Source: Nitrospinota bacterium
GTDB lineage: Bacteria; UBA8248
Assembly (NCBI GenBank): GCA_030754595.1
Contig: JASLZZ010000129.1
Span: forward strand, 32,001 to 96,000
Reading direction: 5' to 3'
Length of the DNA: 64,000 nucleotides
A program made the position numbers and the translations under genes. Shown in pieces: positions 2,540 through 63,600 of the stretch. A model generated the notes under the pieces. That model worked only from the letters and a program-made list of their open reading frames with translations, made no database searches and was not told the origin of the DNA. Each line of letters begins with the position of its first letter. Positions within the stretch are counted from its first letter, which is position 1.

Positions 2540-2546
2540 ACGCCAC

Positions 2547-3757: not shown

Positions 3758-3778
3758 TCTGAGCGGGAGCACATCCGC

Positions 3779-4159: not shown

Positions 4160-4236
4160 GACCGCGGACTTCAAATTCAACATCGCTTTGGGCAAGACAG
4201 AATGCCATCCCGCCGGGCCACGCGCCGGGGGTGAAA

Positions 4237-7511: not shown

Positions 7512-7806
7512 GTGGCGTTTACGCATGATTAATTGACGCATATCATGCATTTGCCTTCTTTTTGATCCGGGCAAGTATTGTCGAAAAAGTACCAAAAATT
7601 CTCTCATTCGGCATGGACCTTCGGGGAGGCACACCGCCTTCCCTCCTGGCCGCCTGACTGCGATGGAGGGCAGGATATTGTTGCGCCGCCGTTTACGCAA
7701 CCCCCTTTTTTCACTAAAATGAACTCATCCAAAGGTTATTATTATTCAAACACCGGGAAAACCCGGGAAGCTATCGCCCCCCTATCACCCAGGAGCGGGG
7801 TTCAAT

Positions 7807-8322: not shown

Positions 8323-8372
8323 TATTATCCCGCTTCCCAACGCGGGAGCACAGCGCCAGGAGGCTTCGAATC

Positions 8373-8960
8373 ATGCGCACGGAAGACATGCTCAAAATCC
8401 TCCACCAGTACCGCGAGGACGCGATCGTCATACCCGGGCGGGGCGGAAACCATTGGATCAAAATGAGCACGAAACCCGAAAGGGATCTGGCCTTCAGGGG
8501 AACCGCGATGGGCGGCCGCTCCTCGTTCGCGCTCGGTCTCGCGCTCGCCCGCCCGGATGAAAAGATAATCCTGCTCGACTCGGAGGGCGACATTCTGATG
8601 GGTCTGGGGGCCTTGGCGACCATCGCGGATAAGCGCCCCAGTAATCTGTACCACTTCATACTGGACAATGAATGCTACGCCACGACCGGCGGGCAGCCGG
8701 TCCCCAACGCGAAGAAAATTCGATACGACCTCCTCGCGCAAGGGGCGGGCTATCCTTCCAGCCATGCCTTCGACGAGCTGGATGATTTTTCGAGCAATAT
8801 CGAGGCGATACTCAACGAACCGGGCCCGGTCTTCGTGAGCGCGAAAGTCGAGCCCGAGATCGTCAACGAACCCATCGCAACGCGAAGGCGCTGGCAAACC
8901 CGCTCGAACGAGCAGGTCATCGTCGATTTCAAAAACGCACTGGGTCCAAGGGCCGCCTAA
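8373..8960 (+). CDS. ThDP-dependent decarboxylase beta subunit (ComE-like)
   Basis: AMG, DSEGDILMGLG...LDNECYATTGGQP ThDP-binding motif variant. Confidence 0.8.
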   Translation: MRTEDMLKILHQYREDAIVIPGRGGNHWIKMSTKPERDLAFRGTAMGGRSSFALGLALARPDEKIILLDSEGDILMGLGALATIADKRPSNLYHFILDNECYATTGGQPVPNAKKIRYDLLAQGAGYPSSHAFDELDDFSSNIEAILNEPGPVFVSAKVEPEIVNEPIATRRRWQTRSNEQVIVDFKNALGPRAA

Positions 8961-9021
8961 GGGCAGCTCGTTTTTCAAAAACATCCCGCCCCGGCAAAAA
9001 AACCATTTGCCGGAGCGCTCG

Positions 9022-9588
9022 CTATTCCGGCTGCTCCCTCGGGGAGTCCGGCAACGCCTCGGCGTCGATGAGGATGAACGCGATCCGGCAGGGCGCATCG
9101 CTCCTGTTGGACCAGGCGTGATTCGTCCCCCGCTGGATAAGGACATCGCCGGGGCCCATTTTCGTCTCGCCGACGTCCATCATGGCGTACACCTCGCCCT
9201 TGAGTACGATGGCGTAGTCGAGGGTGCGCGTTTTGTGAAATCCGGGATGGCGGCTCGATGCGCCCGCCGCGTAGGCGCCCTCGCCCCCGTATTGGGAAGC
9301 GGTGCCCGCTCTGTCCATCCCGACCCCGAAGCGCACATCGTCGGGCGGCATGTCGATGATCCTGAAAACATTTCCCCGCTCCGGGGGATCGAGATTAACC
9401 GGCCTTTCGGCAGCGTCGGCGTCGCCCGCGTTCGAGGCCGGGGCACCGTCCGCCGCCCAGAGCTCATGCCAGATGAAGCCGGGGATGCCTTTGACTTCCA
9501 AGCTGTCCGGGGCCGCCCGATCCTCGAGTATCACCGACTCGCCCCGCTCGTTGTGCCCGGTGAGTATCCGCCTGAACGATTCGCTCAT
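9022..9588 (-). CDS. Cupin domain protein
   Basis: RRILTGH, FHKTRTLDYAIVLKGE, GDVLIQRGTNHAWSN. Confidence 0.85.
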   Translation of the reverse strand: MSESFRRILTGHNERGESVILEDRAAPDSLEVKGIPGFIWHELWAADGAPASNAGDADAAERPVNLDPPERGNVFRIIDMPPDDVRFGVGMDRAGTASQYGGEGAYAAGASSRHPGFHKTRTLDYAIVLKGEVYAMMDVGETKMGPGDVLIQRGTNHAWSNRSDAPCRIAFILIDAEALPDSPREQPE

Positions 9589-9660
9589 ATTATTATTCCT
9601 TAAGTGTATGGGTGGTCTAATTCAAAACCGCCGCTTCGATTGCGAGGGCCGGAAACGCCA

Positions 9661-11316
9661 CTAGGCGCTCGGAATAACCGGGGCGAACAGGTAGGAGCCC
9701 TCTGCCCCCTCGAGGATCGTGTTGTCCGCCTTGACGGGAAACGCCTCGTGATAACCGGGGCGCTCGATGACGGAGCCGCTGCTTGCGATCTCGAGTCTCA
9801 GGCGGTGACCCGGCTGAAATACGTTGCAGGTGGGGACCAGTTCTATCTCGAAAACCGCCTCCTCGCCCGGCGTAAGCGGCACCGACCGTTTGTGCGGGTG
9901 CCACGGGCGGCCGGGTTTGGAGCGTGATTCGTCCACCTCGCGGTGAGAGGCGCGAAGCCACCCCCTCGTCAGCATCCGGGCCGATCCGTCCGGCGCCTCG
10001 TCCATGAAGGCGATGAACCAGTCCACATCCTCGGCCGTCGATCGCGCCACAAGGCGAGGCGAAAGGGGGCCCGTTATTTCGAGCGGTTTATCCACCGGTT
10101 CCGAGCGATAGACGAGCTTCGGGCCTCCGAGGCACCAATCCTCCCCGAAAACGTCGGGCGAGTAGGTTCGCTCCCCGCCGCCGCCCGCCGAGAAGGAAAG
10201 CGTACCCTCCTCTCCCCCGGAGGGGCCGCCCCCGGCCGGGCCGCCCGAAAAGATCCGCGTCCATTCCGTGCGCTTGAGGGGCCACTCCTCCTCGCCGCGC
10301 CAATGGCCGTCGCCCCGGAGGTAGAGCTGAATCGGCGGGCCGTCCATCACCCCGGTGTCCATCCCCTTGAGCCAGTGGTCGTACCATCGCAGCGTCTCCT
10401 CGTGATAGGCCCCGAACGGGCGGCGGGGCTCGGGCTGGGGCCCGACCAGGATGCGCTTGGGAACATCCCCCACCCCCTCCCATCCCGTGAAGATGCCAGC
10501 CAGATGAAGCTACCAGAACGACCAATCGCAACCGAAGTAGACGGGGATGTTGACCTTATCGAGGTGCGGGCTAGGCGAGCGCCTCCAGTAATGCTCTCCG
10601 TCATAAGGATGAGAAAACGAGAGCCCCTCGTCGAACATATTCCGCAGGCCCGACGGATCTCCGAGCCGCCCGCTGGTCAGATTCAGAGCGGCCACCGCCG
10701 AGAACCACGTAGAGGCGAATCCCATATGAGGAACGCCGCCATGAGTCGAGCGGTGCCGGTACATGTCGGTGTATGCATCGTAGGGAAAGATCGCTTTCAA
10801 GGCCTCGGGCTGGTGAACCGCCGCCAGGAGCTGGGCCAGCGCGAAATAAGAACAATCGATCATTCCCACCGACCCGTTGCACCAGGGCTGCGCCGCGCAC
10901 CACTCGATGAGGTCGACATAGTCGGCCTGTTCTTTTTTCGCCTTGTCGTCGTAGCTGCCCTCCGAGTCGTTCGAGCCACGGCAGTCCACGATGACATGCG
11001 CATATCCCCGGGCCACCCAAAACTCCGTGATGCCCGCCTCGTTCTGGCCGATTGGCACCTCGGTGAGCTGAAGCCCCCGGGTGTAGGGCGATACGGAAAT
11101 AAGCGCCGGAAACTTTTGCCCGGCGGCGCGGGGTCGGTGGACATCCGCGGCGAGACGCACATCGTCGCGCATGGAAATCATCAGATCGTATTCCGAGAAA
11201 ATGTTGTAGGCCGGCTCCGAGCGCTCCCTGACCTCGGGCGGCGAATCGAAGGGCCACTGGGGCCAGACGGCCGGATGCACATGGCGAACGCTGTTTGGAT
11301 CCCAGACCGGCTTCAT
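9661..11316 (-). pseudogene. CocE/NonD family hydrolase interrupted by an in-frame TAG
   Basis: ORFs 10510..11445 and 9661..10473 are in the same frame with one TAG at 10510-10512 (…CDWSFW*LHLAGIFTGW…); DCRGSNDSEG, WCNGSVGM and a PepX_C-like C-terminus; nucleophile motif reads DCSY instead of GxSY. Confidence 0.8.
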
Positions 11317-48287: not shown

Positions 48288-50690
48288 TCACCGCTCCGGC
48301 CTCCACCGCCGGAGCAAAAGGGTGTTGCTCACCACAAACACCGAACTGAACGCCATCGCCGCGCCCGCCACCACCGGGCTCAGAACGCCCAGCGCCGCGA
48401 GGGGGATTCCCAAAACATTGTAGAAAAAAGCCCAGAAAAGATTTTGGCGGATCTTCCGGAGCGTCGCCCGCGACAATCGGACCGCGTCGGTGACGCCCAT
48501 CAAATCCCCGCGCATCAGGGTGACGTCCGAGGCCTCCATCGCCACGTCCGTTCCCGTACCGACGGCGAAGCCAACGTCGGCCTCCGCAAGCGCGGGCGCG
48601 TCGTTGATTCCGTCGCCCACCATCCCGACCACTTTCCCCTGCCCGCGAAGCGCCTTCACCTTGGCCGCTTTCTCCTCGGGAAGAACCTCGGCTATGACGC
48701 CCGTTATCCCCGCCTGGGCGGCGATGGCTCCGGCCGTGCGGCGATTGTCCCCGGTCATCATGTAGACCTCGATCCCCATATCGAGAAAGGATTTCACGAC
48801 CCCGGGCGAGGTGTCCTTGAGCGTATCCGCCACCGCCACGGCCCCTAAAATCTTTTTTTCGTCGGCGAGGAACATCACCGTCTTTCCGGCCTCCTCCATC
48901 GCCGCCACCTCGGGCGCGTGCTCGCCCGGCGAGAAGCCGCGCCCGTCCATGAGTTTCTCGTTGCCCAGCCAGAGCGTCCGGCCTTCGATCTTCACCTCGA
49001 GGCCCTGGCCCGGCACGGCCTGAAAATCCACAGCCGGAAGCAGCTCAACGCCCTCCCGCTTCCCCCGCGCCAGAATCGCCTCGCCGAGGGGGTGCTCGGA
49101 GCCCTGCTCGGCGCTCGCCGCGAGCTGGAGCAGACCGGGCGCATCGACCCCGCCGAACGAAACGATGTCGGTCACCTCGGGCTTGCCGTTCGTGAGGGTC
49201 CCTGTCTTGTCGAGAATGATGGCATCGAGCTTGTGGGCGGTCTCGAGCGATTCGCCCCCTTTGATGAGGATGCCCGCCTCGGCGCCCTTGCCTGTCCCGA
49301 CCATGATGGCGGTCGGGGTGGCTAGCCCCAGCGCGCAGGGGCAGGCGATCACCAGCACGGCGACCGCGTTCACCAGGGCGGGCGCGAATCCGGCATAGGC
49401 GTACCAAAGCGCGAAGATCGCCGCCGCGACGGCGAGGACGGCGGGGACGAATATTCCCGAAATTTGATCGGCGAGGCGCTGAATCGGGGCCTTTGAGCCC
49501 TGGGCTTCCTCGACCAGGCGGATGATCTGGGCCAGGACCGTGTCCTTGCCCACCTTCGTCGCCCGGAAGCGGACGGCGCCGTTTCCGTTGATCGTCGCTC
49601 CGGTCACCATGCCGCCCGGCCCCTTTTCCACCGGAATGCTCTCGCCGGTGATCATCGACTCGTCCACCGAGGTTTGGCCCTCTTCGATCTCGCCGTCCAC
49701 CGGGAACTTCTCCCCCGGCCGGACCTGGACCAGATCGCCCTCGACCACCTGCTCGACGGGAATCTCGCGCTCCTCGCCTTCGCGCAGAACACGGGCGGTC
49801 TTCGACTGGAGGCCCATGAGCTTGCGGATGGCGTCCGAGGTGCGCCCCATCGCCCGGCTCTCGAGCACCTTGCCCAGGAGGATCAGGGTGATGAGGACCG
49901 CCGGGGCCTCGTAGTAGACGAACATGGCGTCAAGGCCCAGCGCTGTCACCGTGAGGCTGTGGAAATATGCGGCCGAGGTGCCCAGCGCCACGAGGACATC
50001 CATGTTCGCTCCGCCTCCGCGCAGCGAGTGATAGGCCCTGCTGTAAAACCGCCAGCCCGCGATGAACTGCACCGGCGTCGCGAGGGCGAACTGCCACCAA
50101 CGGGTAAGCTCCCAGGGCTCCCCGCCCGGGAGGTGTCCCCTCATCTGATAGAGCAGGGGCGCCGAGAGAAGCGCCGAGGCGGCGAGGATCCAGAGCTCTC
50201 GCCGGGCCGTCTTTTCGCGGGCGGCGCGCTCCGCCTCCTCTTCCCCCGCCGAGATCTCGTGGGCGGTGTAGCCCGTTTTCTCCACCCGCGCGATCAGTTC
50301 CTCGGGCGAAGCCACCCCCGCCCGGTAGCGGACGAGCGCCCGCCCGGTAGCCAGGTTAACGGTGGCCGACACCACCCCCTCTAGCACATTGAGCCGCTTT
50401 TCGACCCACGCCGAGCAGGCGGCGCAGGTCATCCCGCCGACGGCGAGCTCGGCGGATTTTTCGGGCACCGTAAAACCCGTCTGGACGATGCGCTCGGCGA
50501 TGCCCGAGGGGGTCACGGCCTCCGGGTCGTAGAGGACGCTGGCCCGCTCGGTGGCGAGGTTGACGCTGGCCTCGGAGACGCCCTCGAGGGCGCCGAGGCG
50601 CCGCTCCACCCGCGCCGAGCAGGAGGCGCAGGTCATCCCCCCCACCGGAATTTCGGTCTTGACGAGGTTTTTTTCGGCCACCTCTACCAT
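48288..50690 (-). CDS. copA: Cu(I)-transporting P1B-type ATPase
   Basis: Two GMTCxxC domains, [36 protein letters not shown]. Confidence 0.96.
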
Positions 50691-50730
50691 TTCATATCCA
50701 CAATTAAAACAATTATATAAATAGCGTTAC

Positions 50731-51450
50731 TCAATGTTTTTTGTCGCCCTTATCCGCCCAGGGGAGATTTTCCACCGCCCGGCGGCAATCCAGCTCGAGA
50801 GCGCCCTGGTCAAGGGTGCTCCGGGCGATGATGTGGGCCCCCTGTATCTGGCCGAAAAACGAACGGGCGATCTCCCCGCTCTCCGCTTTGGCGTCGAGCG
50901 CCCCCTCGGCCTGGGCCTCGCGGACCATCCCCGCGATTCCCTCGATCACCCCCTCCCAGACTTCCTTGAGCCGGAGGCGGAAGTCCTCGTCAAGCCCGCT
51001 GAGCTCGAGCGAGAGCTTGCCGATCGGGCATCCGCAGCAGGGAGACTCCGCCCGGGGCATATGGGAGTAAAGAGCCGCCAGCCGCTCGAGTTTTCCGCGC
51101 CCGCTGGACCCGCCAGCTAGGCGGGACCCACCTCGCCGGCGGGTCACCTCCTTGAGAACGGGCTCGATGAAATTTCGGTGAATGAGTTGCTCGTAGTGGT
51201 CGATGACGGCGAGGCCGAGGTTTTTTTTCGTTCGAAAGAAATAATAGAGGCTCCCCCTGTTCACCTCCACCTTCCGGGCCACTGTGTCGAGTGAGGTCCC
51301 CTGATAGCCCCGGAGATAGAACAGATCGGCCGCGGCGGCGACAATCTGATCACGCGTGCCGGGCGCCTCTTTTTTCTCAGCCTTCACAGCCGCCTTCACT
51401 TCCACCTTCGGTGGCACGGAAACATCCTCCCGGGAAGAAGGTAGGCTCAT
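50731..51450 (-). CDS. TetR/AcrR family regulator with a CCGCP motif
   Basis: HTH (LFYLRGYQGTSLDTVA…GSLYYFFRTK); C-terminal domain SPCCGCPIG. Confidence 0.88.
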   Translation of the reverse strand: MSLPSSREDVSVPPKVEVKAAVKAEKKEAPGTRDQIVAAAADLFYLRGYQGTSLDTVARKVEVNRGSLYYFFRTKKNLGLAVIDHYEQLIHRNFIEPVLKEVTRRRGGSRLAGGSSGRGKLERLAALYSHMPRAESPCCGCPIGKLSLELSGLDEDFRLRLKEVWEGVIEGIAGMVREAQAEGALDAKAESGEIARSFFGQIQGAHIIARSTLDQGALELDCRRAVENLPWADKGDKKH

Positions 51451-51545: not shown

Positions 51546-52493
51546 CTAGGGTAAATCCTCACACAGAGCGCCCAGGTGGGCCCCCACGGAGGAGGCCAGC
51601 GCATCGAGATTATACCCCCCCTCGAGTAGGCTGACGATGCGGCCCTCGCACACCTCGGCGGCCACTCCCATTGACACCCGGGTCATCCGGGCGAAGGACC
51701 CGCTCGTCAACCGGAGCCCGCCCAGCGGGTCGCCCCGGTGGGCGTCAAAGCCGGCCGAGATGATGAGAAACTCGGGGGCAAAGCCCCGGAGAGCGGCGGC
51801 CGCCTCCTCCTCGAAGCGCGCGAGGTAGGCGTACTCGGGCGTTCCCGGAGAAAACGTCAGGTTCAGCGTCGCCCCCAGCCCTTCGCCCTCGCCCCGCTCG
51901 TCCTCTAGCCCGCTTCCCGGATAAAGGGGGTGCTGGTGGAGGGAGACGAAGAAAACCTCTGGATCCTCCCAGAAGACATGCTGCGTCCCGTTCCCGTGGT
52001 GGACGTCCCAGTCCAGGACGGCCACCCGGCGCAGCCCGTGTTGTTCCTGAATATAGCGGACGAGAATCGATGCGGTGGCGAAGAGACAAAACCCCATGGA
52101 CTGAAACGGCAGGGCGTGGTGGCCGGGCGGGCGCATCGCGCAGAAGGCCGCCGGGTAGAGGCCGCCCGCCACCTCGTCCGCCGCCGTCAGCGCCGCGTCC
52201 ACCGCCCTCAGCGCGGCCGGGTAGCTTCCCTCGCTGATCCGCGTGTCCCCCCCGTCGAGCGCCCGGAAACCATGCTCATGGGCAGTGCGGACGAAGTCGT
52301 GGTGCCCGGTCTCGTGGACACGGAGGACCCAGTCCGCCGCGCCGTGCGGAACGATTGGCCTGTGCGCCAGCCTGGGCGCGCGCTCGCGCATTTTTTCGGG
52401 GTGAAGGCGCTCGGCCCGCTCGATGCACTCGACGTGGCGGCCGGTGCCGTGGTCGAGCGATGACTCATCCCAGAAATAGGCGATTTGGGCCAA
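51546..52493 (-). CDS. Histone deacetylase-family amidohydrolase
   Basis: RPPGHHA, GFC, DWDVHHGNGTQ, SAGFDAH..DPL, LEGGY. Confidence 0.93.
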   Translation of the reverse strand: MAQIAYFWDESSLDHGTGRHVECIERAERLHPEKMRERAPRLAHRPIVPHGAADWVLRVHETGHHDFVRTAHEHGFRALDGGDTRISEGSYPAALRAVDAALTAADEVAGGLYPAAFCAMRPPGHHALPFQSMGFCLFATASILVRYIQEQHGLRRVAVLDWDVHHGNGTQHVFWEDPEVFFVSLHQHPLYPGSGLEDERGEGEGLGATLNLTFSPGTPEYAYLARFEEEAAAALRGFAPEFLIISAGFDAHRGDPLGGLRLTSGSFARMTRVSMGVAAEVCEGRIVSLLEGGYNLDALASSVGAHLGALCEDLP

Positions 52494-52556: not shown

Positions 52557-53474
52557 CTAGACCAGGCGGACGCGCGGGTCCAGGTAGGAGTAAATGAAAT
52601 CGACGAGAAAATTGAGCGAGACGAATATCAGCGCGGCGATCGTCACCGAGGCCTGGACCAGCGGAAAATCCTTGGCGTAGACGGCCTGGATCATCAGCCG
52701 CCCGATGCCGGGCCAGGCGAAGATCGTCTCGACGATGACGGCCCCGCCCAGCATGTGACCGAACTCAAGGCCGATGATGGTGACGACGGGGATGAGCGAA
52801 TTCCGCAGGGCGTGGATGTGGATGATCGCCCACTCGGCCAGTCCCTTCGCCCGCGCCGTGCGTACGTAGTCCTGCCCCAGCACGTCGAGCATCGAGGAGC
52901 GGATGACCCGGGTGTTCCGCGCCAGTGAATAGGTCGCCAGCGTGATCGAGGGTAGGATCAGCTTTTCGAGCCCTCCCCTGCCGCTGACGGGCAGCCAGCC
53001 CAGATGCACCCCGAAAATCAGGATGAGCATGAGGCCCAGCCAGAAAACCGGCATCGCCTGCCCGAAGAGGGCGAATATCATGCCGCCATAGTCGTAAGGG
53101 GATCCGCGCATCGATGCGCTGATGATCCCCAGCGGGAGAGCAAGAACGATTGAAATGACCAGGGCCACGGCGGCCAGCTCCAACGTGGCCGGCACCCTTT
53201 CCATGATCAACTCGAAGGCGGGCTGGCGGTAGCGGAGGCTCTCGCCGAAATTGCCCTGCAAGGCGCGGCTCACGTAGGTCGTGTACTGAATGACCCAGGG
53301 CCGGTCGAGGCCCATGTCGTGGCGAAGCTTCCGGACTTCCTCGACGGTCCAGTCCTCCCCGACCAGGGTGTCGGTCGGGTCGCCCGAGAGAAACAGCACG
53401 GAAAAGGAGATGAAGCTCACCCCGATGACCACCAGGATGGCCCGGAACGCCCTCCTCACAAGATAGGAAACCAC
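52557..53474 (-). CDS. Peptide/nickel ABC permease DppB-like
   Basis: GLDRP..QY, ATLEL, DYVRTARAKGL, ETIFAWPGIG. Confidence 0.92.
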   Translation of the reverse strand: MVSYLVRRAFRAILVVIGVSFISFSVLFLSGDPTDTLVGEDWTVEEVRKLRHDMGLDRPWVIQYTTYVSRALQGNFGESLRYRQPAFELIMERVPATLELAAVALVISIVLALPLGIISASMRGSPYDYGGMIFALFGQAMPVFWLGLMLILIFGVHLGWLPVSGRGGLEKLILPSITLATYSLARNTRVIRSSMLDVLGQDYVRTARAKGLAEWAIIHIHALRNSLIPVVTIIGLEFGHMLGGAVIVETIFAWPGIGRLMIQAVYAKDFPLVQASVTIAALIFVSLNFLVDFIYSYLDPRVRLV

Positions 53475-53516
53475 CTATTTCTCTCCTGACCCAGAGCGGT
53501 CTAACCCGGCCTGAGG

Positions 53517-55088
53517 CTATTTCGCCGTCTTCAGGGCGATCGAGGGAAGGTAAATCCGCTCGTCTGGGCGCGGGAACCATTTGATGCGCGGGTTCAGCCC
53601 GTAGAAATCGTACTGGGTCCAGAGAAAGACCCAGGGCGCGTCTTCGTGGACGATGTTCTGCATCCGGTAGCTGATCTTCTTGCGCTCGGCGGGGTCGAAA
53701 GTCCGGCCCAACCTAATGTAGCTATCGATGAACTCGGGGTTCTTCCAGTCCGTCAGGTTGGCGTAGAGATTCGGCCGCAAAACGCCCAGGTCGAGTTCGG
53801 CGTTGAAGGCCGAGCTGAAGCCATGGAAATAGAGAGGCGAGAACCGCTTCTTCCACCTCCGGGAGAGATAGACCGACCACTCCAGCGGATTGACCTCGGC
53901 CTTGAGGCCCACCGCCCGGAGATTCGCCGCCACCGACTCGCACATCTCCTTGCCCTTGAGGTAGCGGGCGGCCGGCACATCGATCTTGAATTCGACCGGC
54001 TTGCCGTCCTTCTCGAGCACGCCGTCCCCGTCGGTGTCCTTCAGACCGGCCTCGGCCAGAAGCGCCTTCGCTTTCTCCTGATCGAAGGGGTAGGCCTCGA
54101 TCGAATCGTCCGCGTTGGGGTCGTTCACGACGGTCGCCAGGCGCGAGCCGTGGCCGTTGAGTACGCTCTGCGCGATCTGATCGAAATTGACGGCGTAGTT
54201 TATCGCCTGCCGGACCCTTTTGTCCTTGAAAACCTCGAAGCTTTGCCGAATGCCGAGGTAGATGCGGCGGCCGCCGTGAATGGCCTTGAGCTGGTTCCCT
54301 CTTTCCTCGCGGGCGAACATCGCCCCCTGATCGGGGGAAATGCTGGAAATAATGTCGGCCGCTCCCGCTTCGAGTTCGGCGATTCTCGCCGAAGCCTCGG
54401 GAACAGGGCGCCACAACACCTTTTTGATCTTCGCTTTGCCCCCCCACCACTCCTCGTTGGCTTCCATTTCGATAAAATCGTCCTTGACCCATTTCACCAA
54501 CTTGTAGGGACCCGTACCCACCGGCTTGCGGGAGACCTCCTTCGGAGACGTTTCAGTATAGTGCCCGGGCGGAAGCATGAACGAATTCACCAGCCAGATC
54601 GGCAGCGTCGCGACCGGCCGCTTGGTGTGGATTCGCACGGTGTGATCGTCCACGATCTCCACCCGGTCGAGCTCGATCCGCCTCGGGACGGTTGTACGGG
54701 TCTTGAGTTTTTTATCTCGCATCCGCTCGAAGGTGAATTCCACCGAGCGGGCGTTGAAGGGCTCGCCGTTGGTGAACTTCACTCCCTTGCGGAGGTAGAA
54801 TGTCCACACCTTCTTCGAATCGTCGACCTTCCACTTCTCGGCGAGTCCCGGCCCGAGCGTCATGTCGTCCCGGCGGACGACGAGGCCGTCGAAAATATTC
54901 ATCAAAAAACTCCATTCGACCGTCGATGAGGCGAAATGCGGGTCAAACGTGCGCGCCTCCACAGTGACCAGGATCGTCAAGGGACGGTCGGCCTTGTCCC
55001 CGCCGCAGGATTGGAGAACCAGCAGGGAAACCGCCAGAAGAGCCGCGCTCAAGAATCGTTTTGTCATTCTCCAAAGAACCTCCGCCAA
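53517..55088 (-). CDS. Peptide ABC substrate-binding lipoprotein (SBP family 5)
   Basis: Lipobox LQSC, LRKGVKFTNG, PVGTGPYK, VRQAINYA. Confidence 0.92.
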   Translation of the reverse strand: MAEVLWRMTKRFLSAALLAVSLLVLQSCGGDKADRPLTILVTVEARTFDPHFASSTVEWSFLMNIFDGLVVRRDDMTLGPGLAEKWKVDDSKKVWTFYLRKGVKFTNGEPFNARSVEFTFERMRDKKLKTRTTVPRRIELDRVEIVDDHTVRIHTKRPVATLPIWLVNSFMLPPGHYTETSPKEVSRKPVGTGPYKLVKWVKDDFIEMEANEEWWGGKAKIKKVLWRPVPEASARIAELEAGAADIISSISPDQGAMFAREERGNQLKAIHGGRRIYLGIRQSFEVFKDKRVRQAINYAVNFDQIAQSVLNGHGSRLATVVNDPNADDSIEAYPFDQEKAKALLAEAGLKDTDGDGVLEKDGKPVEFKIDVPAARYLKGKEMCESVAANLRAVGLKAEVNPLEWSVYLSRRWKKRFSPLYFHGFSSAFNAELDLGVLRPNLYANLTDWKNPEFIDSYIRLGRTFDPAERKKISYRMQNIVHEDAPWVFLWTQYDFYGLNPRIKWFPRPDERIYLPSIALKTAK

Positions 55089-55119
55089 ATGTCCCTACGC
55101 TAACAAAAAAGAAATTAGG

Positions 55120-56070
55120 TTAATAATCGTTTCGCAGCCGGGGGTCGAGATAATCCCTTAGCCAGTCGCCGATCAGGTTAATGCTCAAGACGGTCATCAT
55201 GATAGCAAGGCCCGGAAAGGTCGCCATCCACCACGAAACCCTCAGATACTCGCGGCCCTCGGAGAGCATGCTCCCCCAGGTGACGATGGTGGGAGGAACC
55301 CCGAGGCCCAGGAAACTCAGCGAGGCCTCCGAGATGATATTTCCCGCCACGGCGAAGCTGGCGATGATGATGAGCGGCGACATGATGTTGGGCAGTATCT
55401 GGAAAAAAAGCACCCGGTAGACGGGATACCCCAGCGCCCGCGCCGCCTCGACGTACTCCATCTCCCGCGCCGCGAGGACCTGGCCGCGCACGATCCTTCC
55501 GTAGGCCACCCAGCGGCTGATGCCGAGGACCACGATGGTGTTCGTCAGGCCGGGCCCCACCACCGCCATGATCGTGATCGCCAGGAGAATAAACGGAAAC
55601 GCGAGCTGGATCTCGGCGAACCCCATGATGAAATCGTCTATTTTTCCGCCGAAGTAGCCCGAGACCAGGCCCAGCACAATACCGATGATTCCCGAGAGGA
55701 CCACCGAGCTGAGACCCACGAGGATCGAAATCCGCGAGCCGTAAAGCAGGCGGCTGAAAATGTCCCGGCCGAGCGCGTCCGTCCCCAGAAAGTTGGCCGC
55801 CCTCCCCTTCGGCAACCAGGCGGGGGGCTTCAGGCGCTCGCTCACCTGCACCTTCGAGGGATTATGAGGGGAGACCAGGGGAGCGAAAATGGCGACAAAG
55901 AACAGGGCCACGAGAAAAACGGACCCGAAAAAAGCCGGCTTCGTCCGCACCAGGTTCGCAAATAAATGCTCCCAGGTCTGGGTGTCCACCGGCATGAAGT
56001 CGTCGGCCGTGGGAGGAAAAGGCTCGACCACGGTGCCCTCGGGGATTGGTTCGTCGTTTGGTTTAAGCAT
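55120..56070 (-). CDS. Peptide ABC permease DppC-like
   Basis: LGTDALGRDIFSRLLYG, EYVEAARALG, EASLSFLGLG, GDWLRD..DPR; start approximate. Confidence 0.92.
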   Translation of the reverse strand: MLKPNDEPIPEGTVVEPFPPTADDFMPVDTQTWEHLFANLVRTKPAFFGSVFLVALFFVAIFAPLVSPHNPSKVQVSERLKPPAWLPKGRAANFLGTDALGRDIFSRLLYGSRISILVGLSSVVLSGIIGIVLGLVSGYFGGKIDDFIMGFAEIQLAFPFILLAITIMAVVGPGLTNTIVVLGISRWVAYGRIVRGQVLAAREMEYVEAARALGYPVYRVLFFQILPNIMSPLIIIASFAVAGNIISEASLSFLGLGVPPTIVTWGSMLSEGREYLRVSWWMATFPGLAIMMTVLSINLIGDWLRDYLDPRLRNDY

Positions 56071-56280
56071 AGGGAATAATTGTTCCTGTAAAGCACCAAG
56101 CCTGAGCATTCTATCACAGGAAACTAGCCAGTGCGGGCGAACCCGGAGAAGCGGGAGACGGTTTGGTCCGCGAACCTCATGATCCATTTGCCGGAACAGG
56201 CCTTGAGCACTAGAATCCGAACAATTCCGCAAGCCGAATACGCTTCGGACGGATGCCCATTTTTCCCCGGGAGGGGTTCG

Positions 56281-57717
56281 TTGAATTCATCCGCCACGCC
56301 CGAATTTCAAAGCCGCCTTCTCGCCGCGGCTCCGCCCTCGGCGGAGTTTGGGTTCCAGGGCCTCCGGGCGGCCGATTCCATCGCCGTGGAGGCGAGCCTT
56401 CCGTTGAATTTCATTGTCGCCTGCGACTGGGGACTGGGCTGTGAGAGCTGGACCTCCCGTCTCAGATATTTCGCGGTCGAGCGGCCGCTGGAGAAAAGGA
56501 TCGTCTGGACCCACCGATCCATCGTCGAGGCCTACGATGGCGCCTGGGGGGACGGCCTCAAGCGCCACCTCACATCGGGCGAGGCGCCCCGCGTCGTCGT
56601 TCCCTACCGCTCGACCGAGTTCCTCGAACTCCTCGCCGCCGAATCCGGTGGGCTCGTCTCGGTCCTCGCGAACCCCCTGACGCTCAAAACCCGGCTCGAC
56701 GACAAGGTGGCCTTTCGCGCCGAGGCCGAGCGGCGGGGGATCGCCGTGCCTCCCGGCGAGGTCGCGGCGGTAGGCGAGCTCGAAGAGGGGCTTCTCAAGA
56801 AATGGGGGCCCCGCATTATCGTCAACGAGCAAATCGGTTCCTCGGGGAACCAGACCCATCTCATCGAATCGGCCGGCGCCCTCGCGGCCCTCAGGGAGCA
56901 ACTGATCGAAAAGTCGAGGGCGGACTCGCCGGCCACCGTGACCCGCTTTCTCGAGGGGCCCGCCATCGGAGCCGCCTCGTTCGTGTTCAGGGGCCGGCCC
57001 CGGATGTCCTACCCCTCGGCCATGATCACCGGTCTCCCCGGCTCCTCCATGCACCGCTTCGATTATGCCGGGAGCGACTACGGCGCCTTCCTCGGGCTCC
57101 CCGAGGCCGCCCGCTCGAAGATCAGGGAAAACACACTGGACATCGGAGAATGGGTGGCCGGGCTCGGCTACAAAGGCCTTTTCGGAGTGGATTACGTCGT
57201 CCATCGGGGCGAGCCCTTCGCCCTTGAGGTCAACCCGCGCCTCTTGGGAACGACCCAGCTCATGACCGAGCTCGAGCTTAACGAGAGCGCCGCGCCCTCC
57301 ACCACCTACTGGCATCTGGCCGAACTTCTGGGGGCGGGCGTGGAAGCCGACGAAACCTCGGCGGAGCTGGCGCAAATCGGCGCGTCCGTGCTCACCGGCT
57401 TTCAGCTCCTCCTCCGGAACACGCGGCCCCGCCCCGTACGGATTGGACGTGCTATAAACCCGGGGGTCTATATAATTGAAGGCGAAGCGCCGCGGCACAT
57501 CAGGAAAGGCCACCGAATCTTGGACCTCGAGGGGCCCGATGAGATTCTGGTCACCTGCTCGCCCCCCGCCGAGGGTACGGTGGTCGAGCCGCGCGGCGCG
57601 TTCTTCAAGCTCGAGGGTTTGGGCGGCCTTCTGGACGAAACCGCCGAGAAGGTGACTCCGCACACCACCCGGCTGGTCGAGTCCTTCACGGCCGCCCTCG
57701 AACTGACAACGGTTTAA
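56281..57717 (+). CDS. ATP-grasp domain protein
   Basis: LDDK, GSSG loop, FLEG, GYKGLFGVD, LEVNPR; TTG at 56281 after GGAGG. Confidence 0.85.
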   Translation: MNSSATPEFQSRLLAAAPPSAEFGFQGLRAADSIAVEASLPLNFIVACDWGLGCESWTSRLRYFAVERPLEKRIVWTHRSIVEAYDGAWGDGLKRHLTSGEAPRVVVPYRSTEFLELLAAESGGLVSVLANPLTLKTRLDDKVAFRAEAERRGIAVPPGEVAAVGELEEGLLKKWGPRIIVNEQIGSSGNQTHLIESAGALAALREQLIEKSRADSPATVTRFLEGPAIGAASFVFRGRPRMSYPSAMITGLPGSSMHRFDYAGSDYGAFLGLPEAARSKIRENTLDIGEWVAGLGYKGLFGVDYVVHRGEPFALEVNPRLLGTTQLMTELELNESAAPSTTYWHLAELLGAGVEADETSAELAQIGASVLTGFQLLLRNTRPRPVRIGRAINPGVYIIEGEAPRHIRKGHRILDLEGPDEILVTCSPPAEGTVVEPRGAFFKLEGLGGLLDETAEKVTPHTTRLVESFTAALELTTV

Positions 57718-57736
57718 TTAAAGAAAGGACTCACCC

Positions 57737-58924
57737 TTGACCGGCGTCGATTTTTTCTCCTCCACCGCGCGCGGATTGTTCCTGCGCGCGGGGGGCCTTG
57801 AGCGCGGAGCAGACGAGGTCCCCCTGTCCGTGGAGAACGTTCCGGCGGGTGCGGTCGTTCTCGCCGAGGTCGTCGATGTCCCCGCCCGCTGCCGGGTGGG
57901 GAACCTCGAGATCATCGAACCGGCCGCGGGCGCTGCCGACACCTGGCTCACGCGGGAGGTCGCCCTCATCCGGGGCCAAAAATTCGTGGGCGCCATCGGC
58001 GGCCGGTTCGCCAACCGCAGCATCAACGGCCACGCCCCCGCGCGGCCCGCCCCTCCCGGGCGCGAACTCGACCTGCTCAACACGGGAGGCGTAGTCGGCC
58101 TGTCCGCCTCGGCGGATCAGGCCACCGTCAAGCTCCGGGTGCTCGGCGGCGTCGAGCTGGGCGGCGGCCCTGCGGGCGGCGGTCCAACCTTCGTCTCCGA
58201 TCTGACCTCGATACCCGAGACCGCCGCCCCCGATGAAGACGACCCGGCGCCGGGGACCCCGCTGGTCCTGATCGCGGGATCGGACATGGACGTGGGAAAA
58301 ACCACCTGCGCCGCCTCGCTCGCGCTCTCACTGCGCGCGTCGGGTATCCGGGTGAGCTACGCCAAGCTGACTGGAACGGGACGGATGCGGGACCTGATGA
58401 AAGTTAGCTACGGCCGGCCGGAGGGGCACTTCGACTCAGACCGCCTGGGCTGGGATTTCGTCGACGCCGGGCTCGCCACCACCTTCGAGATCGGCCGGGA
58501 GGAGGTTCGCCGCCAGGCCAGGCGTCTCCTGAACCACGCGGCCCTGCGGGGGGAGGTTATCATCGCCGAAATCGCCGACGCCCCCAACGCCGAGGGCAGC
58601 ATCTACGTCGCCACGGACCCCTGGCTCCAGGGCTGGCTTCAGCGCTTCGGGCTCATCGTTTGCGCTTGCGACAGCGTTAGTTCTACCCTTACCGCTCAAT
58701 GGCTAAGAAGTCAGGTCGGCCTGGGCGATGAGGAAATCCTCATCTCCGGACTGGTGGCGAACGATCCCGCCACCCGCGAGGAAGTGGAGCTCGAGATAGG
58801 CCTCCGGACGGTGAGCGTCTCCGCCCCGAGTCAACTCTCCCACCACGGGGGGAAAACCCAGGGTGGCGCGATGGCTGACTGGGTGATTCGCCACATCATG
58901 AACCTGCGAAAGGCAATGCCATGA
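57737..58924 (+). CDS. DUF1611/DgcN-like P-loop protein
   Basis: LDLLNTGGVVG, GSDMDVGKTT, AKLTGTG..RD, DFVDAG..TT, EIAD. Confidence 0.7.
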   Translation: MTGVDFFSSTARGLFLRAGGLERGADEVPLSVENVPAGAVVLAEVVDVPARCRVGNLEIIEPAAGAADTWLTREVALIRGQKFVGAIGGRFANRSINGHAPARPAPPGRELDLLNTGGVVGLSASADQATVKLRVLGGVELGGGPAGGGPTFVSDLTSIPETAAPDEDDPAPGTPLVLIAGSDMDVGKTTCAASLALSLRASGIRVSYAKLTGTGRMRDLMKVSYGRPEGHFDSDRLGWDFVDAGLATTFEIGREEVRRQARRLLNHAALRGEVIIAEIADAPNAEGSIYVATDPWLQGWLQRFGLIVCACDSVSSTLTAQWLRSQVGLGDEEILISGLVANDPATREEVELEIGLRTVSVSAPSQLSHHGGKTQGGAMADWVIRHIMNLRKAMP

Positions 58925-60567
58925 ATGCCCCACCAGCCCCGGCCTCCCCGGAGGGGGCGACCGCCGAGGCCCCCCTCGCACGAAGGGAGGACCTCTATCG
59001 CCAGACCCCAGACGCCAGCGAGGGCACCTGGGACCTCTTCCGGGTCAGCCGCGAGTTCGACGGACCGGCGGGATATTTCACCGAGGAGCTCATCTCCCGG
59101 CTGAACGCCTGGGCCGCCGGGGACGAGGAGTTCTCGGGCATGCGCTTGAAGGAGGCCGAAGGCCCGGCCTGGCTCCCCCGCGAGATTTTGCTGCTCGACG
59201 GCTCTCCGAACCACCTCCCGCTCACCGCCGAGACGGCGCGCATCGCCGAAGCCCACCTCGGGCGGAGCGGCGCCGCCATCCCCATCCATGTCATCAACCG
59301 GCGCGATGAACTGATGACGCGGGTGGCCCGGGCGCCGAGGGAAACACTGGTCCTCAGCCAGTGCGCCCAGCGCAGCCTCTACGACGCCCGCCTCTCGGAG
59401 GTGCTGGTGAGCATGGGGGCGATTGTCGTTCCGGGCCCGCTAACCGCTCCGGACGGTCCCCTCTCCAACAAAGAGCGAACCTACGAATTTCTGAACGGCG
59501 TGGGCGACGCCGCCGAAAACCAGGCCACCGGAAAAAGCGGCCCCATGACGGCCCGCTATCAGGCCCTCTCCGTGGACGGACGGGTGGCCCGCGCCACCGC
59601 CGAAACCATCATCGACAAGGCCGAAGAGCTCGGGGAGCGGTGGGGAAACTCCACCTTCTTCGTCAAGCCCCAGCAGGGCGGCGGCGGCGTCGGTTGTTTC
59701 CGGATCGATGTCTTCCCGGAGGGATTCGCCCTCCCCGACCTCAGCCGGCTCGGCGTCGCGCCCGAGCGCCTCAGTCCCATGCCGCTCTCCCTCGACCCCG
59801 GCAACCGGGACCATGTCCGCGCGCTGGCCTGGCTGGCCGCCCGCTACGCGGCGAGCCCGGCCACCCGGCGGGCCTATCTCCGGGGCCGCTTCCTGGCCTC
59901 CGGAAAACCGACTCCCCCCCTGACCGGCCGCATCGCCGGGGTGTTAAAAAAGTCCGCTCCGCACCTACATAAAAACCTGGCGAACGCCGCGGAGGGGAAG
60001 CAGCGCGCGGTCGAGCGCCTCGCGCACGCCATCGAAAATTTCCAACAACTATTCGGCAGGCCCTACCATCCGCTCATCTGCGACTGGATCGACTTCAGCC
60101 TCTTCAGCGTCCGTGCTCACCTTCGGATGACCCGTAGCGGACCCACGCTCGAATCCCTCTACGCCCGCCTCTTCCCGGTCGAGTTCACGGACGAGACCAT
60201 CGGCGCCATAGGTGTGGACAGCATCACCAATCACGAGGGAGAGGGAATGGAGTTCAACCGCTACGTCCCCCTCCTTCCGCAGCTGGTGGAGTTGGCCGGC
60301 GGCGCCGATGCGGTTTGCGGGGCCATCCGAAAGTCATACACCGCCTTCCGTCGTTTCGTTTCGTTCCTCTCTCCCCGGGAGCGGGAGCGGATGCCGGTCC
60401 GGGCGGAATTCGACATATCTCCTCTCAGCGGGCTGATACCTGAGGGGAACGCCGATCCGGTCAGGGGCCACTGCGCCAACACCCGGTGGAGTTCGTTTCA
60501 AACCAACACGGGCGAATGGATCGAGGACGCCATCGCCTACTATTCTTGGAAATCCCGTTCCAAATAA
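58921..60567 (+). CDS. Divergent ATP-grasp-fold protein
   Basis: LSNK.RTY, FFVKPQQGGGGVG, FSVRAHL, EFD…EGNADP (D…ExN); ATGA overlap with the upstream gene. Confidence 0.62.
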   Translation: MNAPPAPASPEGATAEAPLARREDLYRQTPDASEGTWDLFRVSREFDGPAGYFTEELISRLNAWAAGDEEFSGMRLKEAEGPAWLPREILLLDGSPNHLPLTAETARIAEAHLGRSGAAIPIHVINRRDELMTRVARAPRETLVLSQCAQRSLYDARLSEVLVSMGAIVVPGPLTAPDGPLSNKERTYEFLNGVGDAAENQATGKSGPMTARYQALSVDGRVARATAETIIDKAEELGERWGNSTFFVKPQQGGGGVGCFRIDVFPEGFALPDLSRLGVAPERLSPMPLSLDPGNRDHVRALAWLAARYAASPATRRAYLRGRFLASGKPTPPLTGRIAGVLKKSAPHLHKNLANAAEGKQRAVERLAHAIENFQQLFGRPYHPLICDWIDFSLFSVRAHLRMTRSGPTLESLYARLFPVEFTDETIGAIGVDSITNHEGEGMEFNRYVPLLPQLVELAGGADAVCGAIRKSYTAFRRFVSFLSPRERERMPVRAEFDISPLSGLIPEGNADPVRGHCANTRWSSFQTNTGEWIEDAIAYYSWKSRSK

Positions 60568-60654
60568 GCTAGACTAGCGAAAACACCCTAGCCCTTCCGG
60601 ACAATGAGGCCACTGGCCCCGGTCCGGCCCTTTAATGAAAGGCAGAGGGGTTCC

Positions 60655-63600
60655 ATGGCCGGCCTTTTTAAGCGGTTGTTCAATGTCCGTGAGGACGAAT
60701 TTCTCGTCTTCGCCGCTTTCTTCTTCTTCTATTTTCTGATTGGGCTCCAGTTCTCGATCGGCCTCTCCGTCTCCGAGGCCCTTTTCCTATCACACCCGAA
60801 AGTAGGGCCCTCCTTCCTCCCCTACATGTATATTTTCAACGCCCTCGTGATCATCGTCGTGAGCATGGTCTACACCCGGTTCACGGAAATGCTTTCGATT
60901 CCCTCGATGTTCAAGGCGGTCCTCCTGTTTTTCATCGGGCTGATCCTGGTCATCCGAATGGGGATCTCGGTGGACATCCGAGCGATGGACATCCCCATCG
61001 CCCTGCCGTTCCTCCATACCTTGTTCATGATGTTCACGAACATGGTCCCGAACAATTTCCGGGCCTTCTACGGACTCTATCTCGATATCCTCCAGGCGAA
61101 ACGCCTGGTCCCGATTATTTTGACCGGCGGGCGCTACGGCGGAATCATCGGGGGCTTCTCGATTCCCCTCCTGGTCGCCATCCTGGGCAACGTGGCGAAC
61201 CTGCTTTATTTCTGGATTGCGACCATCGCTTTTTCGATCTTTCTTATCACGGGAATTCAGATTCGCCTCCGGGACCAACTCCTCGACAAATCGGAGGCCC
61301 CAAAGAAAAAAGCCTCGGCCAAGAGCAAGGCCAAGAGCGGGATATCCCTCCTGGAAACGAACCGCTACGTGGCGGCGTTCTCCATCTTCAGCTTCATCAT
61401 CATCCTCCTGAGAAGTTTTCAGGACTATCAGTACAGTGTCATTTTCCGGCAGGTATTCGAGGACAAGGCCCAGCTCGCCTCCTTTCTCGGGATGTTCACC
61501 GGAATCGGAAGCGCCGTCGCCCTCCTGATTCAGACCTTCATCACCCCGCGAATCATCAGGCACATGGGCCTGGCCACCGCCAACTTGATCTACCCCCTGA
61601 CGACGCTTTTGGGCCTGGCCGCCATGATCCTCTCGCCGGGCTTCTACTCGGCGGTGTTCCTGAGATTCAATAACAAGAACTTCCAGGAATCCATCCGCAA
61701 TCCGATCAACGCCCTTTTGTACAACGCACTGCCCACGAACCTCCGTAGCCGCGTGGGGGCCTTCGTGGCGGGCCAGGTCGTCGCCATTGCAAGCATTCTG
61801 AGCGGAGTCATCTTGCTCATCATCCGGCCCACCGGACTCGCCCTCCTGCCGTTGACTCCGAGGTGGGTGGCCGGAATCACCTTCGTCATCGCCTCGGGCT
61901 ATCTGGCGGCAGGGTTCTTCCTCAGGAGCGAATACTCCGCCGCACTCCGAAAAATGCTCGAGGAGCGGAACCTCGGCCTCTTCCGGTTCGCAAAGGAAGG
62001 GTTCGGGGATGTTGACGAGGAGAGCATGTCGATTCTCGTCAAGAATCTCCACGAGGGCGACGACGATCTTTGTACATACGCGGCCGGCATGATCGCCGAA
62101 ACGGGCGACGCCAAGGCAGTCAGCTTCATCTTGGACGAAGTCCCCCACCGGACGGGCGCCTGTCTGTGCAGCCTGATTCACCTTCTCGCCCAGACGCCCG
62201 ACGTCGCCGAAAACCAACGGGTCCGAAAGCTCTGGGAGCAGATGCTCAACTCGAACGACGACGACAGCCGCCAGGCGACCATGGACGCGATATCCGAGGC
62301 CGGCCTGATTGACGAGTACGTGGAGCGGATCCAGGAAAGCCTGGAGCACAAATCCCCCATGGTTCGCTCGCGGGCGATCTGCCTCCTCGTCCACTCGGAC
62401 GATCTTTTCTTCCTGGCGGCGGGTCTTCAGACGCTTCACGGCATGCTCGAGGATGAAAGCCCCGAGGAGCGGATCTGCGCGCTCCGGTGTATCGGGGAAC
62501 TCGAGAATCCGCGCTTCGTCCGCCGGGTGATCCCCCACCTCTCCGACGCCGACAGTGTGGTGCGCGAGTCGGCCATGGAATCGATCGAGCGCCTCCTCAA
62601 GGACGATATTGGAGACAGCCAGCGCCTCAACCAAATCATACATGTCGCGCTGGTGGATTCAGACGCTTCGATCAGACGGCGCGGGGTCCGGCTTCTGGGG
62701 AGAAGGGGGATCCGGGAGGACTTCGAGCGCCTTCTCGCCTCCCTGTCCGACCCCGACGCGATGGTCCGTAGCGAAGCGGTGAGTTCGCTCAAGGAGATGA
62801 AACGGAGGGAGGCCCTCACCCTCGAGGGCGGCGCCTTGTTCACCCTTCTCGGGCGATGGCTCTCCCCCTCGGTTAACGGAAACGGTCATGAGATGAGCAA
62901 CGACGAGTTGATCGAAGGGCTGACGGAATTCTCGCTCGAACACCTCCTCGGCGTCTACGAAATTATCAATCACCTCCACGCGATCGAGCGCCTGGAGGAG
63001 AGCGAGTCCTTCGTCATGCTGCGGAGTACCCTCAACGACAAGGTGCAGGAACGCCAGAGCCTCATCCTCTCGCTCCTCGGGGTTATCGGTGACGAGAAAA
63101 CCGTGGACACGGTATCCGAATCCCTCGCCCGGGGAGAGAAAACTTCGCACGCGATCGCTATAGAAACGCTGAGCAACGTGAACGCGGTGGGCGATATCCG
63201 CCAGGTGATCCTCATGCTCGAGCCGCTTTTGCTCGGCGGGACAACCAGCGAAAAACTCGCCGAGGGCCGCAAAGTGTGGCAACTTCAGCCCGTCGATTCC
63301 GGGGAAGCGGTCAGGATATACACTGAATCGGCGGACCCGTGGATCCGGGCTGTGGCGGTCGATGCCGCCGGGCATCTCATGGCGGATGAGCAGGCCGCCC
63401 CTTCGGCCGGAGCCGGTGCCGCCGGGGAGAATCGAAGTAAATGGACGAGCCGCATCAACGCGCTGGCCGTAGACGAGGACAGCTATGTGCGCGAGGCGGC
63501 GGTGAGCGCTCTTGGGCGGGTGGACAACTCGGGACCCCGGAAGTGGTTGGACGCCGCCGCCGGCGACGCCGAAGAGCGCGTCCGCAGGCAGGGGCGGCGC

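Follow-up and report, generated by a model that had tools for sequence, protein, structure and literature searches.

What does the gene cluster at one end of a 64,000-nucleotide stretch of a Nitrospinota genome make, and which genes belong to it? The stretch (hereafter the window) covers positions 32,001 to 96,000 of contig JASLZZ010000129.1 from assembly GCA_030754595.1. A first-pass annotation made from its letters had described a three-gene operon in which two unrelated ATP-grasp ligases surround a DUF1611-like P-loop enzyme, divergent from a peptide transporter and a deacetylase, and had suggested a small peptide product, possibly N-acylated or containing D-amino acids. We find that the genes form a real, conserved operon of four members, here called G1 to G4, and that what is conserved across phyla is G1 together with G3 rather than the triad, G2 being a phylum-specific addition. 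The reading that we prefer, with a probability of roughly 45%, is that the operon uses ATP to build a short peptide-like compound and couples this assembly to membrane transport.

The first three genes are as tightly coupled as had been described. The TAA stop codon of G1 (57715–57717) is followed by a 19-bp gap containing an AAGGA-like site and by the TTG start codon of G2 at 57737, and the stop codon of G2 shares an ATGA (58921–58924) with the start codon of G3. The description of a three-gene operon was right as far as it went and short by one gene, as G4 starts 36 bp past G3 in the same direction and belongs to the unit too; its full length was taken from the genome contig. A terminator scan was uninformative overall (9 sites against 6.6 expected) and placed no convincing terminator in the G3–G4 gap. 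Contigs from RNA-seq data (three libraries of one study; 152–193 bases, at least 99% identical) fall on G1, G2, the G2/G3 junction, G3, and G4, one of them spanning the junction at 58805–58972; these are short pieces, and the stretches without cover carry no information. No plausible small open reading frame (ORF) that could encode a precursor peptide was found in or around the intergenic region upstream of G1 (55990–56420), and the operon gaps (19 bp, an overlap, and 36 bp) leave no room for such a gene inside the operon, in agreement with the first-pass annotation.

Within the phylum, the operon is conserved as a block. Homologs of G1, G2, and G3 identified by a word-indexed search came almost entirely from metagenome-assembled genomes labeled Nitrospinota, Nitrospinae, or Tectomicrobia. 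When 32 related genome loci were compared by tblastn, the order dppB-dppA-dppC, divergent from G1-G2-G3-G4, was constant wherever the contig was long enough, a recurrence that shows the arrangement not to be accidental, and most of these loci also carried hdac-tetR-copA. In the most distant syntenic locus (L031; 36–39% protein identity), dppCAB and G1–G4 are kept, and znuABC takes the place of hdac, tetR, and copA; the deacetylase, which the first-pass annotation had named as a neighbor, is therefore not core.

Among 51 surveyed genomes of the phylum, whose mutual relatedness makes the counts descriptive, G1 was detected in 36, G2 in 36, G3 in 35, and the membrane domain of G4 in 34, and the same 15 genomes lack all four genes. 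The expected co-occurrence of the triad thus holds both in the order of the 32 loci and in this survey; it fails across phyla, where G1 and G3 occur without G2. Of the four other members of the window's genus, two are among the genomes lacking the operon, as are all four small (~2.1 Mb) genomes of another genus (g9). Two genomes were discordant. One of these (G011), at 67% completeness, has a G3 match that begins 4 bases from a contig end. The other (G021, from a sister genus) holds a decayed locus (L102; G021:C1:2744000-2752000, ~2288-4419) in which G2 is full length, dppB is reduced to its last 51 residues, and G1 is reduced to two short fragments (residues 8–75 and 407–470), with no dppA, dppC, G3, or G4 match in the 8-kb stretch. 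One genome of the window's genus that lacks G1–G4 (G050) retains a dppA-like gene 66% identical to that of the window (L111; G050:C112, ~7344-8830), which is split over two frames by an apparent frameshift and lies in another context with no adjoining dppB, dppC, or hdac; because nothing else remains, the boundaries of the operon deletion cannot be mapped in that genome. A TAG that seemed to lie inside G1 in many genomes proved to be the ordinary stop codon of the gene, where the match ends.

The motifs that had been read in the first three proteins are all present, those of G1 as 'FGVD...LEVNPR'. G1 scores 24.8 bits against Pfam ATP-grasp_3 (PF02655; cut-off 23.2), matches the NCBIfam model PRK06524 at 3.8e-10, and matches BesA weakly. 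When a profile of 28 homologs was run against the PDB, chains of pyruvate carboxylase, CPS, BesA, PurT, and biotin carboxylase were retrieved (E 6e-9 to 1e-5). Residues K136, D140, K142, D304, E316, N318, and R320, which include the catalytic E..N.R pattern, are invariant among the 28 sequences. With a score above the curated cut-off and its catalytic residues kept, G1 is by sequence a member of the ATP-grasp superfamily, in a branch containing small-molecule ligases such as BesA and PurT.

G3 is an orphan ATP-grasp family that no sequence library recognizes. It has no match in Pfam or NCBIfam at E ≤ 0.01, and so none to the RimK or LysX family models; a single-sequence phmmer search of the PDB returned nothing, and a profile search returned only chance-level matches, with no ATP-grasp chain among them. 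The first-pass annotation had staked its proposal on this protein modeling as ATP-grasp, and it does so confidently. The AlphaFold2 model built from 45 homologs (predicted local distance difference test, pLDDT, 84.9; predicted template-modeling score, pTM, 0.86) is matched by Foldseek to Ddl, DcsG, and ArgX at a probability of 1.0 (E ~1e-6). VIA-align ranks DcsG first (Z 20.5 over 284 residues), followed by ArgX (20.1), LysX (19.3), RimK (17.6 and 16.9), Ddl (17.3), and GshB (16.5), these matches spanning 270–287 aligned residues; among the lower-ranked matches are the graspetide macrocyclases PsnB (13.3), MdnB (12.5), and MdnC (12.0). G3 is accordingly predicted to adopt the three-domain ATP-grasp fold of the DcsG/ArgX/LysX/RimK/Ddl/GshB branch, and the model includes an N-terminal extension and a helical insert at about residues 296–378.

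Conserved residues of G3 agree with this assignment. The motifs 'FFVKPQQGGGG' and 'EFD...EGN' are seen in the window's protein, and the 'VKP..GGGG' lysine and the 'R.E.D...EGN' pattern persist to 24–34% identity. K249 and R494 never vary in 14 distant sequences (identity down to 24%), and at least 90% of these keep D498, E508, and N510, the equivalence of these positions to Ddl residues being drawn at the level of motifs rather than by residue-level superposition. The family is tiny: when 1.84 billion cluster representatives were searched with its profile, 41 matched, about a dozen of them full length. For a predicted complex of G1 (residues 10–478) with G3 (20–548), the score was 0.00 where the mark was 0.32, a result that speaks neither for nor against a two-subunit synthetase.

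Full-length distant relatives of G3 carry the source names KSB1, Elusimicrobiota, and Portnoybacteria, together with one DPANN archaeon. A pattern scan of metagenome contigs using the alignment of distant G3 sequences yielded 63 distant loci, and in 56 of them a G1 homolog, 22–31% identical to that of the window, lies directly upstream of G3. These G1 homologs match the LdmS, MfnD, and PurT models weakly. Five of the seven remaining loci have at most 121 bp of upstream sequence, and only two (L035 and L095; 637–894 bp, no G1 match) are true exceptions, so G1 and G3 almost always occur together across distant phyla and their pairing is near-obligate. At L035, what lies upstream (2–736) of the G3 homolog (892–2496) is a gene for a polytopic membrane protein that has no relation to G1. 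None of the 63 loci contains a homolog of G2 (E ≤ 0.01), G4, or the Dpp proteins.

The distant pairs have partners of their own. Of the 39 distant loci that have 1 kb or more of sequence ahead of G1, 32 carry a MATCAP-like gene (PF08014) immediately before G1 and on its strand. For the MATCAP-like protein, the PF08014 score is 155.7 bits; on TIGR02421 (QEGLA) it reaches 164 bits, short of the cut-off of that model. The HExxxH motif is intact in all 33 MATCAP-like proteins, and the gene is found in at least two different wider gene contexts. Directly downstream of G3, CstA is encoded in 15 of 44 distant loci. In the window's own genome (96.9% complete), no MATCAP-like gene was detected with a hidden Markov model built from the 33 locus proteins, a model that found all of its 36 positives; a scan for PF08014, whose positive controls were likewise unrecovered, gave no match either. 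Apart from an unrelated 113-residue family present at 13 distant loci at variable distance from the pair, no conserved family of small ORFs flanks G1 and G3 at the distant loci, although these were not systematically compared.

G2, which separates the two ligases in this phylum, has been modeled with a pLDDT of 92 as an all-beta region (residues 1–140; seven strands by DSSP) followed by a P-loop domain (~170–395); the protein carries the motifs 'GSDMDVGKTT' and 'KLTGTG'. Every Pfam and NCBIfam match of G2 falls below its cut-off, including DUF1611 (PF07755; 18.3 bits, cut-off 25, residues 175–215 only) and the BioD equivalog TIGR00347 (20.4 bits, cut-off 83.3). VIA-align gave CTP synthase (Z 14.7), TM0796 (14.6), Ava_3511 (14.4), DgcN (13.9), and BioD (12.3), and the matches to 2g0t, 2obn, and 7xrj cover mainly the P-loop domain. 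The N-terminal region matches no Pfam family, the DUF1611 N-terminal domain included, which in its canonical form we take to be Rossmann-like. In its modeled fold, then, G2 is 'DUF1611-like' in the P-loop domain only, which resembles CTP synthase, DUF1611, and BioD equally well. As a whole protein, the fold was matched only by unnamed or 'DUF1611-like' Atlas clusters (TM 0.75–0.81) from Pseudomonadota and Acidobacteriota.

The first-pass annotation had linked G2 to DgcN (7xrj), presumably a D-glutamate N-acetyltransferase. Given the weak P-loop match, the tie with BioD and CTP synthase, and the beta-barrel N-domain, DgcN-type acetylation cannot be inferred for G2, and the suggestion of an N-acylated or D-amino-acid-containing product, which had rested on that same match, is not supported either. 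When a G2 profile was aligned to PDB entries 1a82, 1dts, and 3fgn, the P-loop, K210, and E278 fell on GTDTEVGKT, K37, and E115 of BioD, and G187, K188, T189, K210, and E278 are invariant among 53 sequences. With a GxDxxVGKT-type P-loop and equivalents of K37 and E115, G2 is a candidate P-loop amidoligase of the BioD pattern. A protein distantly resembling G2, which carries the annotation DUF1611 or dethiobiotin synthase, is encoded in a tight three-gene set on Rhodobacterales plasmids from Paracoccus and Sulfitobacter (L112, L113, and L114; ~7100-10700), with an alpha/beta-hydrolase or hypothetical gene on its 5′ side and an ATP-binding cassette (ABC) transporter on its 3′ side; genes for an S8 peptidase, a sigma factor, and a peptidase-domain ABC exporter lie near it. 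This arrangement suggests a separate, uncharacterized module.

G4 joins a polytopic membrane domain of ~460 N-terminal residues to HEAT repeats (HEAT_2, PF13646, 2e-24) and a cNMP-binding domain (PF00027, 4.5e-20). Pfam holds no match to this N-domain, even at E ≤ 10; the TLC family (PF03219; cut-off 21) is reached by the G4 ortholog at locus L032 (29.8 bits) and by a paralog in the window's own genome (23.4 bits) that aligns to G4 over ~400 residues (E 4e-9), and the N-domain has an Atlas feature score of 0.98 to TLC/MFS (NTP/NDP-exchange transporter) clusters. Among complete orthologs, to which the comparison was confined, no conserved acidic C-terminal tail is present, the endings including QNE, QSG, QRG, QNA, AES, and AAP. 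Fusions of the NTT-HEAT-cNBD type, to which G4 probably belongs, are described as widespread and functionally uncharacterized in the available sections of Major, Embley & Williams 2017 (PMC5381601). The G+C content, ~0.68 over G1–G3, falls to 0.54–0.58 at the start of G4 (window 60000–61500); because the drop coincides with the hydrophobic membrane domain, an effect of composition is more likely than foreign DNA. In the closest related locus, a gene for a 965-residue multiheme cytochrome c follows G4 (L002, 15374–18271).

Three ATP-dependent enzymes of C–N bond-forming types, recurring transporters, and a carboxypeptidase partner together point to the assembly, trimming, and transport of a short peptide-like product. 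Which reaction comes first, what the substrates are, and which way transport runs are inferred in the account that follows. The two non-homologous ATP-grasp ligases would act in succession, G1 activating a carboxylate as an acyl-phosphate and joining an amine to it, and G3 adding a further residue to the free carboxylate of the resulting intermediate. G2 may contribute a further carboxyl or carbamate activation with C–N bond formation, for example an amidation, ring closure, or capping. G4, controlled by cyclic nucleotides, would transport a nucleotide, a precursor, or the finished product, and the divergent Dpp/Nik-type permease with its binding protein could handle re-uptake of the compound or of the units it is built from. 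Outside this phylum, the two ligases would instead have as partners a zinc carboxypeptidase of the MATCAP/QEGLA type and often a CstA transporter, and from this carboxypeptidase partner the product would be expected to carry a trimmable C-terminal residue with a free carboxylate.

Several points weigh against assembly and transport of a small compound. The best folds of G3 mix protein-tail modifiers (ArgX, LysX, RimK) with small-molecule ligases, so that the modeled fold is undecisive, and human MATCAP acts on a protein tail, that of tubulin, which it trims. The family to which G4 probably belongs is one of nucleotide transporters, and G4 may be unconnected with export of the product. The Dpp/Nik-type set (52557–56232, minus strand) has no ATPase gene in its cluster; OppD/F-type ATPases (PF08352) are encoded elsewhere in the genome, as a tandem pair on contig C127 and further on C41, C34, and C5. 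Joint presence or absence of the four genes among related genomes is not independent evidence, and the RNA-library contigs, while compatible with transcription of all four genes, could alternatively stem from DNA carry-over and do not imply a single transcript. A small-molecule role for the four proteins and their families is moreover proposed from sequence, predicted fold, and context.

The chief competing explanation, which we regard as unlikely, is an 'add-and-trim' modification in which G1, G3, or both attach amino acids to one particular protein, at its C-terminal carboxylate or at one on a side chain, and the MATCAP-like enzyme of other phyla removes them; here G4 might be the target, or else a protein from an unlinked gene. 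Precedents for such chemistry are RimK, which acts on S6, LysX and ArgX, which act on LysW, and TTL, which acts on tubulin. The high ranks of ArgX, LysX, and RimK among the G3 fold matches and the intact peptidase directly upstream of most distant G1 genes fit this explanation, and operons that pair ATP-grasp enzymes with peptidases on glutamate-rich tails are documented (RimK-RimB and RloABC; available sections of PMC12239564). The operon itself, however, contains no conserved small acidic gene for a carrier or target, the C-terminus of G4 is neither conserved nor consistently acidic, and G1 is placed among small-molecule ligases; the recurring neighbors are transporters rather than candidate targets, and the window's genome is without a MATCAP-like gene.

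The other explanations are less likely than both of these. Two ligases that alternate could synthesize a cyanophycin-like poly(amino acid) for storage or protection, with G2 decorating it and the MATCAP-like enzyme depolymerizing it from the C-terminus elsewhere. Cyanophycin synthetase has two ligase domains, to which the paired, distinct active sites of G1 and G3 bear a likeness, and the carboxypeptidase partner and the CstA neighbor, whose Pfam name is carbon starvation protein, would suit a polymer; yet no primer-binding or polymer-handling domain was identified, CphA is absent from the G3 fold matches listed, and we hold this explanation to be improbable. Maturation of a ribosomally synthesized and post-translationally modified peptide of the graspetide type, in which ATP-grasp enzymes macrocyclize a precursor encoded nearby, seems very improbable: the known macrocyclases are indeed ATP-grasp enzymes and do occur among the G3 fold matches, but at Z-scores of 12.0–13.3 they stand well under DcsG, ArgX, and RimK (Z 17–20), and neither the operon and its upstream region nor, as far as they were compared, the distant loci offer a precursor gene. 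It is likewise improbable that G1 and G3 share one function and that G2, G4, and Dpp, with unrelated functions, are their neighbors by descent only, syntenic in one clade. The absence of G2, G4, and Dpp from all 63 distant loci would be expected in that case, as would the G2-like proteins with other partners (alpha/beta-hydrolase, ABC exporter) on Rhodobacterales plasmids and the wide occurrence of NTT-HEAT-cNBD proteins on their own (available sections of PMC5381601). Against descent alone, G2 sits between the two ligase genes and overlaps G3 at the ATGA, the four genes are gained or lost together even inside one genus, gene order holds at the low protein identity of L031, and an RNA-library contig crosses the G2/G3 junction.

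The genes around the operon are listed with it in Table 1. Leftward of G1 and divergent from it lie the dppC-dppA-dppB-like set, then an HDAC-family gene, a TetR regulator, and a CopA-type ATPase, so that divergent neighbors are present as the first-pass annotation had indicated; the spacing of about 210 bp that it gave requires dppC to begin with the ATG of position 56070, and shrinks to 48 bp with the TTG at 56232 that opens the longest ORF. One sigma-70-like site was identified in the dppC–G1 intergenic region (56188–56216, plus strand), and an Rfam scan of 55800–56500 at E ≤ 1 gave no match and hence no riboswitch that would point to a ligand. The dppC-like permease scores under the cut-offs of Opp4C, DppC, and NikC and is syntenic in related loci, L031 included, and the dppB-like permease scores 336.5 bits against Opp2B (cut-off 350). 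A ligand cannot be named for the solute-binding protein, because its PDB relatives mix peptide, nickel, glutathione-type, heme, and opine binders at similar E-values (1e-42 to 1e-32). PDB relatives of the HDAC-family protein include HDAC6 and bacterial HDAH. Metal-transport genes flank the conserved block in both of its versions, CopA with TetR in the window (48288–51450) and znuABC in L031 (1071–3695), with no specific tie to the operon found. A metallophore reading, prompted by the CopA neighbor and by znuABC in L031, was dropped for want of specific support.

Table 1. Genes and intergenic region of the G1–G4 locus, with positions in the window and the basis of each assignment.
Feature	Position	Strand	Basis
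G1, predicted ATP-grasp ligase, 478 residues, biotin-carboxylase/PurT/BesA-like branch	56281..57717	+	Pfam, NCBIfam, profile
G2, 395 residues, predicted N-terminal beta-barrel and C-terminal BioD/CTP-synthase/DUF1611-type P-loop domain	57737..58924	+	Model, profile
G3, predicted ATP-grasp ligase of an orphan family, 548 residues	58921..60567	+	Predicted fold, conserved residues
G4, NTT/TLC-like membrane domain, HEAT repeats, and cNMP-binding domain, 1167 residues	60604..64107 (window ends 64000)	+	Pfam, features
Divergent dppC–G1 intergenic region	56071..56280	.	Length set by choice of dppC start
dppC/nikC-like ABC permease (longest ORF; alternative ATG start 56070)	55120..56232	-	BPD_transp_1 3e-31, OppC_N
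Family-5 solute-binding protein (Dpp/Nik/Gsi-like)	53517..55088	-	SBP_bac_5 8e-87
dppB/nikB-like ABC permease	52557..53474	-	BPD_transp_1 2e-45
HDAC-family (class IIb-like) deacylase/amidohydrolase, context gene	51546..52493	-	Hist_deacetyl 2.8e-80

In openly readable literature, we found no description of the G3 family, its pairing with G1, the phylum-specific BioD-like insert, or the link to an NTT-HEAT-cNBD protein, and the remark of the first-pass annotation that no named pathway has this layout stands. A bolder proposal, unlikely to hold in all its parts, is that G1 and G3 are the halves of an ancient two-ligase synthetase distributed sporadically from this Nitrospinota-like phylum to KSB1, Elusimicrobiota, the Candidate Phyla Radiation (CPR), and DPANN. 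It would make a new non-ribosomal short peptide or peptide tail that bacterial MATCAP relatives trim, and would have been rebuilt here, with a BioD-like third ligase that caps or cyclizes the product and a cyclic-nucleotide-gated NTT-HEAT protein that moves it. If true, this would give the orphan G3 family and the NTT-HEAT-cNBD fusions their first functional context. Identification of the product would add a new peptide or tail modification made by ATP-grasp enzymes and would open three functionally uncharacterized families to direct tests of their roles.

Compared with known systems, the operon combines familiar parts in a different way. G3 has in common with the RimK/LysX/ArgX/DcsG/GshB/Ddl branch a predicted three-domain fold, a conserved lysine, and the R..D..E.N pattern; unlike these enzymes, it has no sequence match to the branch, is ~250 residues longer through its N-terminal extension and helical insert, and is nearly always paired with a second, unrelated ATP-grasp enzyme. 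The P-loop domain of G2 resembles BioD, CTP synthase, and the DUF1611 proteins TM0796, Ava_3511, and DgcN in its modeled C-terminal fold (Z 12.3–14.7) and BioD in the K37 and E115 equivalents, and G2 differs from them in falling under every family cut-off and in its all-beta barrel N-domain. Operons of ATP-grasp peptide ligases and cassettes of ligase and peptidase are known kinds, RimK-RimB and RloABC among them (available sections of PMC12239564). To these and to the QEGLA/DUF1704 (MATCAP, PF08014) cassettes the distant loci are alike in joining a ligase to a trimming enzyme, and the G1–G3 pair is thereby linked to bacterial relatives of the tubulin-trimming enzyme MATCAP; the differences are that these ligases are not of the RimK family by sequence, that the window's genome has no MATCAP-like gene, and that the G1–G3 pair comes without a retropepsin-like or transglutaminase-7TM partner. 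G4, finally, has the HEAT repeats and cNMP-binding domain of the NTT-HEAT-cNBD fusions and a membrane domain that is probably of their TLC/NTT type. For these fusions, the available sections of PMC5381601 do not mention the link to an ATP-grasp ligase operon seen here, and the operon would provide a first genomic partner set for these widespread membrane proteins.

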